Below are positions 20,720-26,946 of a DNA stretch of 64,000 nt, one piece after another. Numbering within the stretch: position 1 is the stretch's first letter; each line of letters starts with the position of its first letter. The notes beneath the pieces are model-generated. The model was not told the origin of the DNA. It saw only the letters and a program-made list of their open reading frames with translations, and made no database searches. The translations under genes were made by a program, and so were the position numbers. Source of the stretch: Candidatus Sericytochromatia bacterium (GTDB taxonomy: Bacteria; Cyanobacteriota; Sericytochromatia; S15B-MN24; UBA4093); NCBI GenBank assembly GCA_036676985.1, contig JAKFBU010000001.1:96001-160000 (forward strand), given 5' to 3'.

Positions 20720-22204
20720 GTGCCCATGCTCGAGACACTCACCCAGCTCGCCCTCACCTTCGTGATGATCGTGATCTACGCCGTCGTCTTCTGCCTGGTG
20801 TACGCCAAGGTGATGGGCGGCATGTTCAGCCGGGCCAAGTTCGATCCGACCAAGGAGACGAACCAGGACCTCCGCTTCACCGACGTGCTCGGCATCGACG
20901 AGGCCAAGCGCGAGGCGCAGGAGGTGGTGGACTTCCTCAAGAACGCCACCGAGTTCGAGAAGATCGGCGCCAAGATCCCCAAGGGCATCCTCCTGGTGGG
21001 CCCTCCCGGCACCGGCAAGACGCTCTTGGCCAAGGCGATCGCCAACGAGGCGGGCGTGCCCTTCTACTCGCTGTCGGGCTCGGACTTCGTCGAGGTCTTC
21101 GTGGGCGTGGGCGCGAGCCGCATCCGCAAGCTCTACCAGAAGGCGCGCAAGCACCCGGCGGCCATCGTCTTCATCGACGAGATCGACGCCCTGGGGCGCT
21201 CGCGCAGCATGAACCAGTTCGGCGGCCAGGAGGGCAACAACACCCTCAACCAGTTCCTCGTCGAGCTGGACGGGTTCGGGCGGGGCGGCAACGTCATCAC
21301 CATCGGCGCGACCAACCTCGAGGAGTCCCTGGACCCCGCCTTGCTGCGACCGGGCCGCTTCGACCGCAAGATCCACGTGGGCCTGCCCGACGTGAAGGGT
21401 CGCGAGGCGCTGCTCAAGCACTACACGAGCAAGGTCAAGCTGGACCGCGCGGTGGACCTCAAAGCCCTGGCCCGAGCGGCCACCCACATGAGCGGCGCGG
21501 ACATCGCGAGCGTCGTCAACGAGGCCTCGATCCTGGCCGTCCGCGAGCAGCGCAACCAGGTCCGGCACGAGGACTTCTCACGGGCCATGGAGCGCCTCGG
21601 CATCGGCCTCGAGAACGCGGGCCGGGTGCTCAACACTCACGAGCGGCAGGTGGTGGCCTACCACGAGGCGGGCCATGCCCTGGTCAACCTCCAGACCCAG
21701 CCCCACAAGCGCCTCCACAAGGTCTCCATCATCCCGACGGGGCGCCATGCGCTCGGCTACACCTGGTCGGTGGAGGTCGAGGACAAGCACCTGGTCACCA
21801 AGGAGGAATACATGGCGGAGCTCGCCGTCCTCATGGGCGGCCGGGTGGCCGAGGAGATGGTCTTCGGGCAGGTGACGAGCGGGGCGCACTCGGACATCAA
21901 GCGCGCCACCAAGATCGCGGAGCTGCTCGTCTGGGAGCTCGGCATGCGCAGCGAGTCGCCCATCAACTACAAGGAGCTGAGCATCTCCGAGGCGACGCGC
22001 CAGCGGCTGGACCGCGAGGTGGAGCACCTCCTGCAGGAGGCCTACGACCAGGCCCGCGAGATCCTGGTGGAGCGCCGGAGCGACCTGGAGCGGCTGGCCA
22101 AGGGCCTCCTGGACCACGAGGTCCTCTACGAGCAGGACGTCTACGCCGTCCTGCACGGGCGCCGGCCCGAGCGCGAGGGGGGCCGCGGCGAGTGGGTCGC
22201 TTAG
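20720..22204 (+). CDS. ftsH: FtsH-family ATP-dependent zinc metalloprotease (short form with one TM helix)
   Basis: Walker A GPPGTGKT, pore loop FVG, Walker B IFIDEID, SRH ALLRPGRFD, M41 motif HEAGH. Confidence 0.9.
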   Translation: MPMLETLTQLALTFVMIVIYAVVFCLVYAKVMGGMFSRAKFDPTKETNQDLRFTDVLGIDEAKREAQEVVDFLKNATEFEKIGAKIPKGILLVGPPGTGKTLLAKAIANEAGVPFYSLSGSDFVEVFVGVGASRIRKLYQKARKHPAAIVFIDEIDALGRSRSMNQFGGQEGNNTLNQFLVELDGFGRGGNVITIGATNLEESLDPALLRPGRFDRKIHVGLPDVKGREALLKHYTSKVKLDRAVDLKALARAATHMSGADIASVVNEASILAVREQRNQVRHEDFSRAMERLGIGLENAGRVLNTHERQVVAYHEAGHALVNLQTQPHKRLHKVSIIPTGRHALGYTWSVEVEDKHLVTKEEYMAELAVLMGGRVAEEMVFGQVTSGAHSDIKRATKIAELLVWELGMRSESPINYKELSISEATRQRLDREVEHLLQEAYDQAREILVERRSDLERLAKGLLDHEVLYEQDVYAVLHGRRPEREGGRGEWVA

Positions 22205-22723: not shown

Positions 22724-23689
22724 TTGAAAGCCACTACGAAGGCACTGATTCCCGCCGTCCTGGCGGCGACGTTCCTGGCGACGGCCTGCGGACCCATCCT
22801 CATGACCCCCAAGGGCGCCTCGGAGAGCCAGGTCACGGCCCTGGGCTCGGATCTGCCGAACGAGATCTTCCAGGGCGAGTCCGCGGTCATGGTCGGCGCG
22901 GGCGACATCGCCTACGAGGGCCCGGGCGCCGAGGCGACGGCCAAGCTGCTCGACCGCATCCCGGGGACGATCTTCGCCCTGGGCGACAACGCCTACCAGA
23001 CCGGGTCGCCCGACGAGTTCGCGCGCTACTTCCATCCCACCTGGGGCCGACACAAGCATCGCATCCGCCCGGTCGTCGGCAACCACGAGTACCGCACGCC
23101 CGGGGCCGCCGGCTACTTCGACTACTTCGGGGCGGCGGCGGGCGATCGCACCAAGGGCTACTACTCGTACGACCTCAACGCCGACTGGCACATCATCGTG
23201 ATCAACTCCTGCTCCGAGGGCGACGACGCGGCCAAGGACAAGCTGACGACGAGCTCTCCTCAGTACCAGTGGCTCGCGCAGACCCTCGACGCCCACCGCC
23301 ACCAGAACGTGGCCGCCATGTGGCACCACCCGCGCTACAGCAGCGGCGCCCACGGGGACAACGACGAGACGGACGCCGTCTGGCGGCTCTTGCACGACAA
23401 GGGCGTGGACATGGTCCTCTGGGGCCACGATCACCACTACGAGCGTTTCGATCCCGCGAATGCCGAGGGCAAGCGGGACGACCAGAAGGGCATGCGCTCG
23501 TGGGTCGTCGGCACGGGCGGCAAGAACCACTACCCATTCTTCAAACTCCCCAAGCGCATCACGGCCGTCCGCGACGCCGGCTCCTTCGGCGTCCTCAAGC
23601 TGACGCTCTTCAAGAAGGGCTACGAGTGGGAGTTCATCCCCATCGCGGGCGAGAAGTTCACGGACCAGGGCCGCTCCCTGGTTCGTTAG
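22724..23689 (+). CDS. Calcineurin-like metallophosphoesterase lipoprotein
   Basis: ATAC lipobox; GDIA, LGDNAY, GNHEY, HHP, GHDHHY motifs. Confidence 0.88.
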   Translation: MKATTKALIPAVLAATFLATACGPILMTPKGASESQVTALGSDLPNEIFQGESAVMVGAGDIAYEGPGAEATAKLLDRIPGTIFALGDNAYQTGSPDEFARYFHPTWGRHKHRIRPVVGNHEYRTPGAAGYFDYFGAAAGDRTKGYYSYDLNADWHIIVINSCSEGDDAAKDKLTTSSPQYQWLAQTLDAHRHQNVAAMWHHPRYSSGAHGDNDETDAVWRLLHDKGVDMVLWGHDHHYERFDPANAEGKRDDQKGMRSWVVGTGGKNHYPFFKLPKRITAVRDAGSFGVLKLTLFKKGYEWEFIPIAGEKFTDQGRSLVR

Positions 23690-23704
23690 ACGCTAACTAG
23701 TCCA

Positions 23705-23746
23705 GCACGAAGCGGGCAGTTCGGGTGCGAACTGCCCGCTTCGTGC
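23705..23746 (+). terminator. Long hairpin separating the phosphoesterase from the precursor gene
   Basis: gcacgaagcgggcagttcg-ggtg-cgaactgcccgcttcgtgc, a 19-bp stem. Confidence 0.65.
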
Positions 23747-23854
23747 GGTCGATCCAGTAGAAAACGAAGATTTAATGGAGGTTTATCGAAGTTTTGGAGA
23801 CATTTGGCGCATATGAATACTAGCAAGTAAAAACGCTGCCGTAAGGAGTCTGTC

Positions 23855-24529
23855 ATGCGCATCAACCCGAATGATCCCGGCTTGCGTCTGCCGAAGCCTG
23901 TCGCTCCGTCGCAGGCGCCGCAGGCGCCAGCCGCCTCGGAGTCCGGCGCCGCCAAGCCCGTGCTCGATGCCGCCACGATTTCCCCGCAGGCCAAGCCCTC
24001 GAAGTTGGGCCTCCCGGAAGCGGAGATTCGCCTCCCCGACCCCATCCACCCGCCGCACAAGATGCGGGCGGATGATCCGACGCCGGGTCCGAGGGGCCCC
24101 ATCAGGCCGCCCATCATCAAGCGGTGCTGGGATGATCCGACGCCCGGCCCCAAGGGTCCGATCAAGCTGCCGCCCGTCATCGTCAAGCGGCGCGCCGACG
24201 ATCCGATTCCGGGTCCCCGGGGCCCCATCAAGATCAGGATGGACGACCCGACTCCGGGGCCCATCAAGCCGCCCATCTACAAGTTCCGGGCCGACGATCC
24301 CCTCCCTTCGGGCCCCATCAAGGAGCCGCCCATCTTCAAGAAGCGCGCGGACGATCCGATCCCCTCGGGCCCAATCAAGGAGCCTCCGATCTACAAGTTC
24401 CGGGCCGACGATCCGATCCCTTCGGGCCCCAAGGACCCCATCGGTAAGCCGCCCATCTTCAAGAAGCGCGCGGACGATCCGGCTCCCGGTCCCATCAAGA
24501 TCAAGATGGATGACCCGAAGCCCTTGTAG
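23855..24529 (+). CDS. Putative multi-core graspetide (RiPP) precursor with nine KxxxDDP repeats
   Basis: AAGGAG RBS; about 65-aa non-repetitive leader, then KMRADDP, KRCWDDP, KRRADDP, KIRMDDP, KFRADDP, KKRADDP, KFRADDP, KKRADDP, KIKMDDP joined by Pro/Gly linkers; adjacent ATP-grasp gene. Confidence 0.75.
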   Translation: MRINPNDPGLRLPKPVAPSQAPQAPAASESGAAKPVLDAATISPQAKPSKLGLPEAEIRLPDPIHPPHKMRADDPTPGPRGPIRPPIIKRCWDDPTPGPKGPIKLPPVIVKRRADDPIPGPRGPIKIRMDDPTPGPIKPPIYKFRADDPLPSGPIKEPPIFKKRADDPIPSGPIKEPPIYKFRADDPIPSGPKDPIGKPPIFKKRADDPAPGPIKIKMDDPKPL

Positions 24530-24538
24530 CCGCAAGCC

Positions 24539-25477
24539 GTGGCGACCGTGAAGCGGGTTGGCCTCGTCTACGGCGAGGAGGATCGGCACATCCGGGCCCT
24601 GGCGGCCGAACTCGAACGCCAGGGCCACGAAGCGGTAGACATTGACGCCTCCGAGCTCTCGGCGGCGTCACTGTTTTCGCTGCGTCAGGATGCCGCCTTC
24701 CTCGGGAACCGTCCCATGGCTGAGCTTTCGGCCGTCTTTCTGCGCAGCATCCTGAGCGCCTTGCCGGGCGTGTACCTCGCAGAAGGCGAATACCGCGTCT
24801 ATTCGGACTGGTACGAGAGCTACACCCTGGCAGCCGAGCGGCAGGCCCTCGTCATGGGCTGGCTGATGAACCTCCAGGAGTACGTCCCGTTCGTCAACCC
24901 GCTGCGGCTGGCGACCATGTCGCCCCTGAAGCCGGTGCAGATGGGCCAGCTCACGCGGGCCGGCATCCGCGTGCCCCGGACCCTGGTGTCGAACGACCGG
25001 CAGGAGATCGAGGCCTTCCGGCGCTCCGTGGGCGATACCATTTTCAAACCCCTGATGGGGGGGCGCTACTGCGATCGCCTGACGGACGAGGTCCTGCGCG
25101 AGGTCGACTGGGGGACCTTTCCCGCCGTGTTCCAGGAGTACGTGCCCGGTGAGAACGTCCGCATCTCGGCGTTGCCGGGCGAAATCCTCTCGGCCTGCGC
25201 GGTCTCGGGCGACGAGATCGACTTTCGGGCCGCCGAGGAGTTCATCGCGGGCCGCGAGCCCATGCGCGAGATCGACCTGCCCGACGACGCGCGCCGGATG
25301 TGCTGGAAGGCGCTCGAGGCCTGCGGCTTCTTGTTCTCGGGCATCGACCTCAAGGGTACGGTCGAGGACGGCTTCGTCCTGCTCGAATGCAACCAGCGTC
25401 CCGCCTGGCTCCACATCGAGGACGCGACAGGAGCACCGATCACGCGCGGCCTGGCCGCCTTCTTGGCGCGACTCTAG
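24539..25477 (+). CDS. RimK/MvdC-D-family ATP-grasp ligase (graspetide synthetase-like)
   Basis: VNP, K.VQ, VPRTLVSND, FKPLMGG, FQEYVPG, DFR, GIDL, LECNQRPAW motifs; starts 9 nt after the precursor stop. Confidence 0.85.
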   Translation: MATVKRVGLVYGEEDRHIRALAAELERQGHEAVDIDASELSAASLFSLRQDAAFLGNRPMAELSAVFLRSILSALPGVYLAEGEYRVYSDWYESYTLAAERQALVMGWLMNLQEYVPFVNPLRLATMSPLKPVQMGQLTRAGIRVPRTLVSNDRQEIEAFRRSVGDTIFKPLMGGRYCDRLTDEVLREVDWGTFPAVFQEYVPGENVRISALPGEILSACAVSGDEIDFRAAEEFIAGREPMREIDLPDDARRMCWKALEACGFLFSGIDLKGTVEDGFVLLECNQRPAWLHIEDATGAPITRGLAAFLARL

Positions 25478-25530: not shown

Positions 25531-25559
25531 GTGACGGCCCGTGCCAGGTGGGCTAGTAT
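25531..25559 (+). promoter_or_regulatory. Sigma70-like promoter for pepC
   Basis: GTGACG-17 nt-TAGTAT upstream of the AGGAGG RBS. Confidence 0.4.
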
Positions 25560-25587
25560 GGTCGCATCACGTTACAGGAGGGCGTCA

Positions 25588-26946
25588 ATGCTTCAAGCCA
25601 CCACGACGATTCCGACCGCTTCCGGGATGGGGGCGATCGCACCGGACCAGATCGAGACCTGGAAAGCCGATTTTGCCACCAATCCGACCCATCGCCTGGC
25701 CATGAATGCCTGTTCACAGGGCAACCTCGACGAGATTGCGCTCAACCGCCAGATCTTGGCCGGCATCGACTGGAACTTCTCCCATGAGGTGGCGAGCGGC
25801 GCCATCACGAACCAGAAGCGGGCAGGCTTTTGCTGGCTGTTCGCCAGCCTCAACTGGCTGCGCATCGACGTCATCTCGACGCTCAAGGTCGAGAACTTCG
25901 AGTTCTCCTACAACTACCTGATCTTCTGGGATCGCCTCGAGAAGGCCAACCGCTTCCTCACGGCCATGGTCGCGAACCGGGATCGGTCGTCGGACGACCG
26001 CCTGGTGGACTTCCTCCTGCGCGACCCGAGTCCGGACGGCGGTGAGTGGCACATGGTGGCCAACCTGATCCGCAAGTACGGCCTGGTCCCCAAGTCTGCC
26101 ATGGCCGACACCTTCAACCTGAGCGACTCGACGTATCTCAACAAGGTGCTCAACTACAAGCTGCGCGAGGCCACGGCCATCATCTTCGGGCTGCAGCGCA
26201 AGGGCGCCTCCGAGGCGGAGGTCGAGGGAGCCAAGCGCAAGGCGTTGTCGGAGATCTACCGGATTCTCTGCATCCTCATGGGGGAGCCGCCCCAGCGCTT
26301 CGACTTCTCGTACCGGGATAAGGACGAGAACTACCACGCGCACCGCGACCTGACGCCGCAGACGTTCTACGAGCAGTTCGTGGGCAAGGACCTGAACGAC
26401 TACGTCTGGGTGATGAGCTCGCCGCTCGAGAGCACGCCTTACCACCAGACCTTCTACCTGGAGCAGTTCAACAACGTGGTGGAGGGCAATCCCGGCGTCT
26501 TCCTGAACGTGCCCATGGAGACCCTCAAGGGTCTGGCCGTCAGCGCCCTGAAGGACAAGCAGGCGCTGCTCTTCGGCTGCGACGTGCTGCAGGCGTCCCA
26601 CCGGAAGATCGGCGTCATGGACCCGAGCATCCTCGATTACGAGCTGGTCTTCAACACCCCGTTCAAGATGGACCGGGCCCAGCGGATGCAGTTCCTCGAG
26701 GCGCGCCTGACGCACAACATGGTCATCCGGGGCGTCGATCTGGCGGACGATCAGCCGCTCAAGTGGAAGATCGAGAACAGCTGGGGAGACGAGCACGGTC
26801 AGAAGGGCTTCTTCATGATGACCGACGCCTGGTTCGACGAGTACGTCTACGCCCTGGTCGTGAACCGGCGCTACCTGGACGGCGAGCTGGCGACCCAGCT
26901 CGATCAGGAGCCGACCGCGCTCCCGCCCTGGCATCCGCTGGCCTGA
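25588..26946 (+). CDS. pepC: Aminopeptidase C / bleomycin hydrolase (peptidase C1B)
   Basis: TNQKRAGFCWLFA (catalytic Cys), FWDRLEKAN, DGGEW, THNM (His), ENSWG (Asn), C-terminal PWHPLA. Confidence 0.92.
   Translation: MLQATTTIPTASGMGAIAPDQIETWKADFATNPTHRLAMNACSQGNLDEIALNRQILAGIDWNFSHEVASGAITNQKRAGFCWLFASLNWLRIDVISTLKVENFEFSYNYLIFWDRLEKANRFLTAMVANRDRSSDDRLVDFLLRDPSPDGGEWHMVANLIRKYGLVPKSAMADTFNLSDSTYLNKVLNYKLREATAIIFGLQRKGASEAEVEGAKRKALSEIYRILCILMGEPPQRFDFSYRDKDENYHAHRDLTPQTFYEQFVGKDLNDYVWVMSSPLESTPYHQTFYLEQFNNVVEGNPGVFLNVPMETLKGLAVSALKDKQALLFGCDVLQASHRKIGVMDPSILDYELVFNTPFKMDRAQRMQFLEARLTHNMVIRGVDLADDQPLKWKIENSWGDEHGQKGFFMMTDAWFDEYVYALVVNRRYLDGELATQLDQEPTALPPWHPLA
26874..26946 (+). repeat. Direct repeat copy 1 (last 73 nt of pepC)
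   Basis: 69/73 identical to 31907-31979 by manual alignment. Confidence 0.9.

Follow-up and report, generated by a model that had tools for sequence, protein, structure and literature searches.

The 64,000-nucleotide stretch of contig JAKFBU010000001.1 analyzed here (hereafter the window) encodes a repeat protein with nine K-x-x-x-D-D-P cores, immediately followed by an ATP-grasp ligase related to the graspetide synthetase PsnB. On the strength of sequence comparison and of analogy to corallotide, the group 15 graspetide, we consider it likely that these genes constitute a minimal graspetide pair, in which a stand-alone PsnB-type ligase would form one Lys(i)–Asp(i+4) isopeptide in each of the nine cores, with no hydroxylation, to yield a proline-rich stapled protein. 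The KxxxD core motif and its Lys–Asp chemistry are already published as group 15, so the system does not represent a new class. Its novelty lies in the enzyme context: a ligase of another clade, no oxygenase partner, another type of leader and, apparently, another phylum.

A nine-core precursor gene and its PsnB-like ligase

The precursor gene (23855–24529 including the stop codon, forward strand) starts with ATG, 6 nucleotides (nt) downstream of a Shine-Dalgarno sequence (AAGGAG, 23843–23848, forward strand), and encodes a protein of 224 amino acids. Its leader (residues 1–68, 23855–24058) is rich in proline (15 residues) and alanine (11 residues). All nine cores follow on the same strand and frame: KMRADDP (residues 69–75, 24059–24079), KRCWDDP (residues 89–95, 24119–24139), KRRADDP (residues 111–117, 24185–24205), KIRMDDP (residues 126–132, 24230–24250), KFRADDP (residues 143–149, 24281–24301), KKRADDP (residues 162–168, 24338–24358), a second KFRADDP (residues 181–187, 24395–24415), a second KKRADDP (residues 203–209, 24461–24481) and KIKMDDP (residues 215–221, 24497–24517). 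The core lysines are thus residues 69, 89, 111, 126, 143, 162, 181, 203 and 215, and the repeat consensus is P-P-I-x-K-x-R-A-D-D-P-x-P. Homologous precursors with K-x-x-x-D-x-P repeats, here called K-type precursors, exist in other genomes.

These are the same nine core sequences that the original prediction had read in this open reading frame (ORF), and a shuffle test supports them: across 200,000 shuffles of the precursor no sequence held more than three K-x-x-x-D-D-P units, against nine in the real protein. Every other stop-to-stop frame of the window contains at most one such unit. Codon choice changes between repeats at the conserved K, R, A, D, D and P positions, with the first aspartate encoded by GAT three times and GAC six times, arginine by CGG, CGC or AGG, and alanine by GCG or GCC.

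A protein-database search with the precursor as query did not return the window's own precursor, and gene callers may have missed the ORF or chosen the wrong strand. Two long antisense ORFs cross the gene on the reverse strand (23686–24276, 196 amino acids; 23783–24628, 281 amino acids). A precursor search of a protein atlas gave only low-scoring proline-rich look-alikes (EspF repeats, ≤0.81).

The ATP-grasp gene (24539–25477, forward strand) starts with GTG and encodes 312 amino acids. As originally described, it begins 9 nt after the precursor stop codon and carries the named ATP-grasp motifs, here FKPLMGG (residues 169–175), FQEYVPG (198–204), DFR (228–230) and LLECNQRPAW (281–290). Among all PDB sequences its top match is 7drm (E 2e-33, residues 10–294, ~30% identity). 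This entry is the plesiocin macrocyclase PsnB, as the DFR residue numbers of the alignment match those of the PsnB paper. Lower-ranked matches are an MvdD-like entry (7e-11), MdnC (9e-4), the RimK/LysX-type entry 3vpd, titled ‘ribosomal protein S6 modification protein’ (0.18), and glutathione synthetase (GshB, 0.79). Arg72, Arg213 and the DFR loop of PsnB, described as critical (bioRxiv 10.1101/2021.03.09.434688), align to R69, R208 and D228-F229-R230 of the window ligase. Every catalytic and ATP-binding position is retained, including K170, D270, E283 and N285. The position of PsnB Arg101, reported to bind the second Glu and to be specific to group 2a (bioRxiv 10.1101/2021.03.09.434688), is occupied by Ala.

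Family models place the ligase similarly. The top NCBIfam model is TIGR04187 (‘ATP-grasp ribosomal peptide maturase’), matched over its full length at 82.8 bits, below the 350-bit cut-off. This cut-off is uninformative here because the CorB orthologue of locus L021 itself reaches just 91.9 bits. The models rimK_fam (42.5 bits, cut-off 143.4), LysX (35.7, cut-off 275.6) and GshB (24.4, cut-off 272) all score below their cut-offs. It is thus well supported by sequence that the ligase belongs to the graspetide-synthetase lineage, and not to RimK, LysX or GshB.

Several metagenome studies of soil and groundwater contain near-identical copies of the locus; one of the runs is not independent, as the window itself probably derives from it. 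Among the best-supported differences (733 more were found beyond these), 8 of 10 in the precursor ORF are synonymous, the other two being A27P and H68Q in the leader; 8 of 12 in the ligase ORF are synonymous. The sequencing runs that hold the locus include no RNA dataset, and one labeled RNA-Seq (X9) is probably DNA.

These observations make it very improbable that the adjacency of the two genes is meaningless, with the ligase a RimK/LysX-type tailing enzyme or the repeat ORF a non-coding artefact of GC-rich DNA. Such a reading could draw on the Pfam results for the ligase, which are weak and generic (GSH-S_ATP, ATP-grasp_3 and RimK), on the apparent oversight of the precursor by gene callers and on the overlapping antisense ORFs. 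It is already contradicted by the shuffle test, the ribosome-binding site and the synonymous variation, by the distance between the PsnB match and those to 3vpd and GshB, by a rimK_fam score far under its cut-off, and by the conservation of the repeat protein at the protein level among loci whose ligases are only 24–27% identical.

Close homologues of the ligase are few. A search of 5.8 billion clustered proteins yielded five (P0002–P0006, at 78, 76, 58, 49 and 48% identity), and in a representative library of 1.84 billion proteins the next ligase cluster is 36% identical. Of 401 genomes sampled from the window's phylum, six (G000 among them) have a match to the ligase at E ≤1e-45, none of them above 40% identity. 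Relatives from the same order or class as the window organism share 27–40% identity and are preceded by multi-core precursors. Locus L002 encodes six T-[LK]-R-[YW]-P-S-D-D cores upstream of a ligase 40% identical to the window's; L003, L004, L009 and L010 have plesiocin-like TTxxxGEEGG cores; and L005 has about six T/K..PEGGQP repeats (TLRYPEGGQP, KTRCSPEGGQP and TQRFPEGGQP). No precursor was found in the available DNA around the ligases of L006, L007 and L008. Because relatives' ligases also adjoin multi-core precursors, the pairing of a repeat precursor with a ligase is, as judged from these sequences, a property of the ligase family. Together with the PsnB-like ligase, these neighbors support the graspetide precursor–ligase pair that had been proposed; the KxxxD-repeat type of neighbor occurs beside CorB-like ligases, described below.

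Two of these precursors stand out by their cores. The L002 precursor (L002:503–1129, forward strand, genome G018, same order as the window) has cores that resemble a multi-core microviridin/marinostatin-type motif, a TxRxPSD-type likeness to the marinostatin core sequence. By eye, the window's K-x-R-x-D-D is similar to these cores, with Lys in place of Thr and without P-S; microviridin/marinostatin-type cores differ in using Thr/Ser donors (esters) and in their ring sizes. The L005 precursor (L005:412–1455, forward frame as listed, genome G012) adjoins a ligase 32% identical to the window's, and its PEGGQP core type matched no named graspetide group.

Corallotide-type precursors with other ligases

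Corallotide, the graspetide of group 15, is produced in Corallococcus exercitus by CorA, CorB, CorC and CorD (PMC13097080; Carter et al., ACS Chem Biol 2026). The precursor CorA is described there as a protein of ~22 kDa with an alpha-helical N-terminal domain of ~86 amino acids and five modified KxxxD repeats. Nuclear magnetic resonance (NMR) of a tryptic fragment ending in ...VKIVADDPLR placed an isopeptide between Lys9 and Asp13, that is, Lys(i)–Asp(i+4) (PMC13097080). CorB, annotated as TIGR04187, forms this link, after which CorC, a divergent 2-oxoglutarate (2OG)-Fe(II) oxygenase (PF13640) reported in all group 15 members, hydroxylates the lysine delta carbon (5-hydroxylation); CorD, which has a beta-lactamase fold (PF00144), is reported to be dispensable (PMC13097080). 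Long repeat precursors also characterize groups 34 and 35, newly introduced in the same report.

The suggestion in the original prediction of a new all-lactam group therefore does not hold, since the motif belongs to published group 15. Its proposal of a Lys–Asp isopeptide in each core fares better by analogy, as this is the chemistry reported for the homologous corallotide repeats (PMC13097080). Literature searches on corallotide and its KxxxD motif returned only this paper, and those on the KxRADDP/KxxxDD motif nothing relevant. A graspetide survey comprises 174 families (PMC8939145), and a group number may already exist for the ligase clade of the window or for the K-type precursors with short leaders described below.

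The window resembles the corallotide system in having a large precursor of repeated K-x-x-x-D-(D)-P units with Pro/Gly-rich linkers, encoded directly upstream of an ATP-grasp ligase for which TIGR04187 is the best model. Our precursor search identified a single protein, P0011, from an Archangiaceae metagenome-assembled genome (MAG), with six NK[VI]RADDP cores; in its locus (L011) an ATP-grasp gene lies 13 nt downstream and a PF13640 2OG-Fe(II) oxygenase follows. Narrow patterns made from an alignment of the two precursors confirmed 1 of 41 genome-contig matches, the known Archangiaceae locus, and 0 of 146 in metagenome contigs. A degenerate three-core DNA pattern identified three stretches in metagenome contigs, one of them a genuine relative, L012, in which ten KIRADDP/V cores precede a truncated ATP-grasp gene. 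The other two (L013 and L014) were rejected as chance matches in unrelated frames.

We searched 151 genomes from the family of the Archangiaceae genome (the Myxococcaceae-family sample) and identified a ligase matching that of L011 at E ≤1e-60 in 20. K-x-x-x-D-x-P repeat precursors are present in 18 of these 20 loci, and the remaining two end at a contig edge upstream. L021 holds the exact tryptic CorA peptide studied by NMR (PMC13097080). A CorC-like gene lies downstream of the ligase in 20 of 20 loci; Pfam confirmed six of the eight ORFs scanned, and tblastn located the other two in other frames or further downstream. All 20 CorB-like ligases (L011 and L017–L035) carry DAR instead of D(F/W/Y)R and Lys at the position of PsnB Arg72. 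This signature may relate to the published dependence of CorB on CorC. Nearly all other ligases in our 77-row alignment have D[FY]R and Arg.

A profile search based on 13 K-type precursors yielded 24 proteins. All 17 with a taxon label are from Myxococcaceae (Corallococcus spp., Myxococcus stipitatus, M. virescens, Archangium and a MAG labeled Myxococcaceae bacterium). Separately, P0179 (96 amino acids, on a contig of 17423 nt) has four PPI[ML]K[VT]R[AV]DDP cores like the window's repeats. The nearest precursor relatives are the short-leader K-type proteins, apparently not yet named in the literature, of L012, L031, L032, L034 and L035, at 48–59% identity to the window's (L012, 59%; L034, 54%; L031 and L032, 51%). 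They share an MRI... start, PPI-x-K-x-R-A-D-x-P repeats and Pro/Lys/Gly linkers. They differ in that their first core lies ~10 residues from the N-terminus, compared with ~68 in the window, and in that their loci encode a CorB-like (DAR) ligase and then a CorC-like oxygenase.

Several observations separate the window from the corallotide systems. First, the precursor has nine cores, compared with the five modified repeats of CorA, and its proline-rich leader shows no sequence similarity to the MTQIKSPTGF... N-terminal domain of Corallococcus-type precursors. Second, the ligase is only 24–27% identical to CorB-like ligases (L011, L021 and L032), and phmmer ranks CorB-like ORFs (E 1e-26 to 1e-36) well behind L002 (6.5e-64). 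Third, the ligase has DFR and Arg69 where CorB-like ligases have DAR and Lys.

Phylogeny agrees with this separation. The ligase tree comprised 77 rows (the window, 40 locus ORFs, P0002–P0007, P0009, P0010 and the first 28 of 150 listed representatives; P0008 and L013–L016 were left out) and was built with a quick IQ-TREE search. The K-type ligases of the Myxococcaceae family form a single clade of 21 rows with an SH-like approximate likelihood ratio test (SH-aLRT) value of 99. The window and P0002–P0006 form a separate clade (SH-aLRT 99), weakly joined (83) to L002, P0012, P0013 and P0017. Forcing both sets of K-type ligases into one clade costs 52.7 log-likelihood units and is rejected by the approximately unbiased (AU) test (p 0.0028), for a grouping that was named after the tree was seen.

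The partner genes differ as well. No CorC-like protein (L011 oxygenase as query) or PF13640 domain was detected in the 64-kb window or in the window's genome, which is estimated to be 100% complete; the positive control of this search matched in 3 of 14 reference genomes. No CorD-type PF00144 gene lies near the locus, and the nearer of two in the genome (C1:10569–11567) is ~108 kb from it (~C1:119855). CorB-like ligases at E ≤1e-55 are present in 0 of 401 genomes of the window's phylum compared with 20 of 151 in the Myxococcaceae-family sample. The window's genome is thus outside Corallococcus and, judging from these sequence matches, apparently outside its phylum.

Predicted stapling chemistry

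In the predicted reaction, the PsnB-type ligase would use ATP to phosphorylate a side chain in each unit, most likely that of the first Asp, which the core Lys, four positions earlier, would then attack through its epsilon-amine. Each unit would thereby acquire a small isopeptide (macrolactam) staple between Lys(i) and Asp(i+4), nine in all, of the kind that NMR demonstrated in the homologous corallotide repeats. Because no 2OG oxygenase is encoded, the ligase is expected to work without a CorC-type partner and the staples should stay unhydroxylated. The product would probably be one large protein, rich in proline and with multiple staples, and not a collection of small peptides.

The choice of the first Asp is consistent with the aligned K-type precursors. 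In all 13, Lys, the first Asp and Pro are invariant, and the second acidic position is D, E, L, S, T, I, R or Q, a pattern that fits the published Lys9–Asp13 link. The L031 precursor (L031:1012–1479, forward strand) has K-[VI]-R-A-D-L-P cores and later D-R-P and D-Q-P versions, each with one acidic residue. These single-acid cores argue that the first Asp alone is needed for a staple.

Each window core does hold two Asp residues, and a different or richer topology would follow if the second Asp also reacted (for example with the Lys of a GPIK linker) or if Lys were linked to Asp(i+5), giving bicyclic or inter-repeat cross-links. The second Asp is kept in all nine window cores, all six of P0011 and all ten of L012; in the window and P0011, most cores are followed by a G-P-I-K element; and PsnB-type enzymes are reported to form two nested rings per core (10.1101/2021.03.09.434688). 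We nevertheless regard this topology as unlikely. The GPIK lysine is the core lysine itself in cores 4 and 9, and His or Arg replaces the linker lysine at cores 1 and 2. Related precursors replace the second Asp freely, as above, and corallotide is reported to carry just one Lys(i)–Asp(i+4) link in each repeat despite its DDP sequence (PMC13097080).

Several points weigh against a stand-alone ligase forming one staple per core. A K-type system lacking a partner has no precedent, as all 20 comparison loci keep a CorC-like gene. CorC is reported not only to hydroxylate the product but also to activate CorB, which alone is insoluble and nearly inactive in vitro (PMC13097080). The second Asp in nine of nine cores and a further Lys in most linkers could allow an extra or alternative link. 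The leader contains no recognizable PsnA2- or CorA-like recognition element. Finally, genomic context for the ligase clade (the window and P0002–P0006) comes from one locus, the window. With regard to recognition, the window leader (residues 37–41, 23963–23977) and P0011 (residues 53–57) have the pentapeptide LDAAT in common; in these otherwise dissimilar leaders it could be a recognition element or a chance match.

The first two points would also fit a decaying or inactive pair, in which K-type cores need CorB and CorC and the window ligase is inefficient on the repeat protein or serves another substrate, as would the Thr/Ser-donor cores used by the nearest members of the ligase clade with known context. 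This seems improbable, more so than an alternative topology. Both genes are intact and lie 9 nt apart, with a strong ribosome-binding site on the precursor. The differences listed among natural copies are mostly synonymous in both ORFs, and no catalytic or ATP-binding position has been lost. The DAR signature of CorC partnership is missing, and the ligase has a canonical DFR.

The favored interpretation, a minimal pair with one Lys(i)–Asp(i+4) staple per core, can be extended to a more tentative proposal that we hold to be a real possibility, if somewhat short of probable: that the window represents a second, partner-independent ligase lineage, in which a PsnB-like, DFR-type, non-CorB ligase serves a corallotide-type KxRADDP precursor in another phylum and staples nine cores without an oxygenase. 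Such a lineage could have arisen by transfer of the precursor or could retain an ancestral condition older than the CorB/CorC partnership. Since DD is present in all cores and a second Lys lies close to most of them, its ligase may also form a second lactam, and with it an as yet undescribed topology.

Two other systems provide useful comparisons. PsnB with PsnA2 (plesiocin, group 2) offers the closest solved enzyme, with Arg72, Arg213 and the DFR loop kept in the window, and likewise pairs a stand-alone ligase with a multi-core precursor encoded directly upstream. The plesiocin core differs, being TTxxxxEE with two ester rings where the window has a Lys donor and Asp acceptors, and group-2a Arg101 is replaced by Ala in the window ligase; by both features the window falls outside group 2. 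The myxomiditide ligase MyxF is described as an ATP-grasp enzyme that acts on (KxxE)n to form several small lactam rings (PMC12848669). By this description, myxomiditide is like the window in having multiple small lactams on a repeated Lys-x-x-acid motif, and differs in its Lys–Glu i,i+3 links, its addition N-terminal to a microviridin core and its four cooperating ligases (PMC12848669).

Genomic neighborhood and implications

Downstream of the ligase by 53 nt is a gene for a PepC/bleomycin-hydrolase-like cysteine peptidase (25531–26946, forward strand; Peptidase_C1_2, E 8.4e-154). We found no terminator-like site between the two genes. A scan of the locus gave no sigma-70 promoter-like sites and one terminator-like site, inside the ligase gene and within shuffle expectation. 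Upstream of the precursor are a metallophosphoesterase gene (Metallophos, 22724–23689, forward strand), whose product has a lipoprotein-like N-terminus, and a gene for a short FtsH-like AAA+/M41 protease of 494 amino acids with one N-terminal hydrophobic segment (20720–22204, forward strand).

Among ten genomes of the window's family, the ligase, the PepC-like peptidase and the metallophosphoesterase each occur in the window's genome only, and a downstream GDE-like gene family is present in all ten. The co-distribution of the three genes indicates a variable region but does not prove an operon, and on this basis the PepC-like peptidase may be accessory to the cluster. A 59%-identical paralogue of the downstream GDE-like glycoside hydrolase (G000:C75:22561–24885) contains one in-frame TAA and may be a broken copy or two genes.

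The locus extends K-type repeat graspetides beyond Corallococcus, to Myxococcus, Archangium, an Archangiaceae MAG and, apparently, another phylum in soil and groundwater. If gene callers overlook such ORFs, K-type precursors could be under-counted in protein-based surveys. The locus also constitutes a natural experiment, in which the same core motif is paired with a ligase of another clade that has a canonical DFR and no 2OG oxygenase partner. Comparison of DFR-type and DAR-type ligases provides a direct and testable lead on why CorB needs CorC, and a stand-alone enzyme that forms i,i+4 Lys–Asp staples on proline-flanked repeats could be easier to handle as a peptide-stapling tool.

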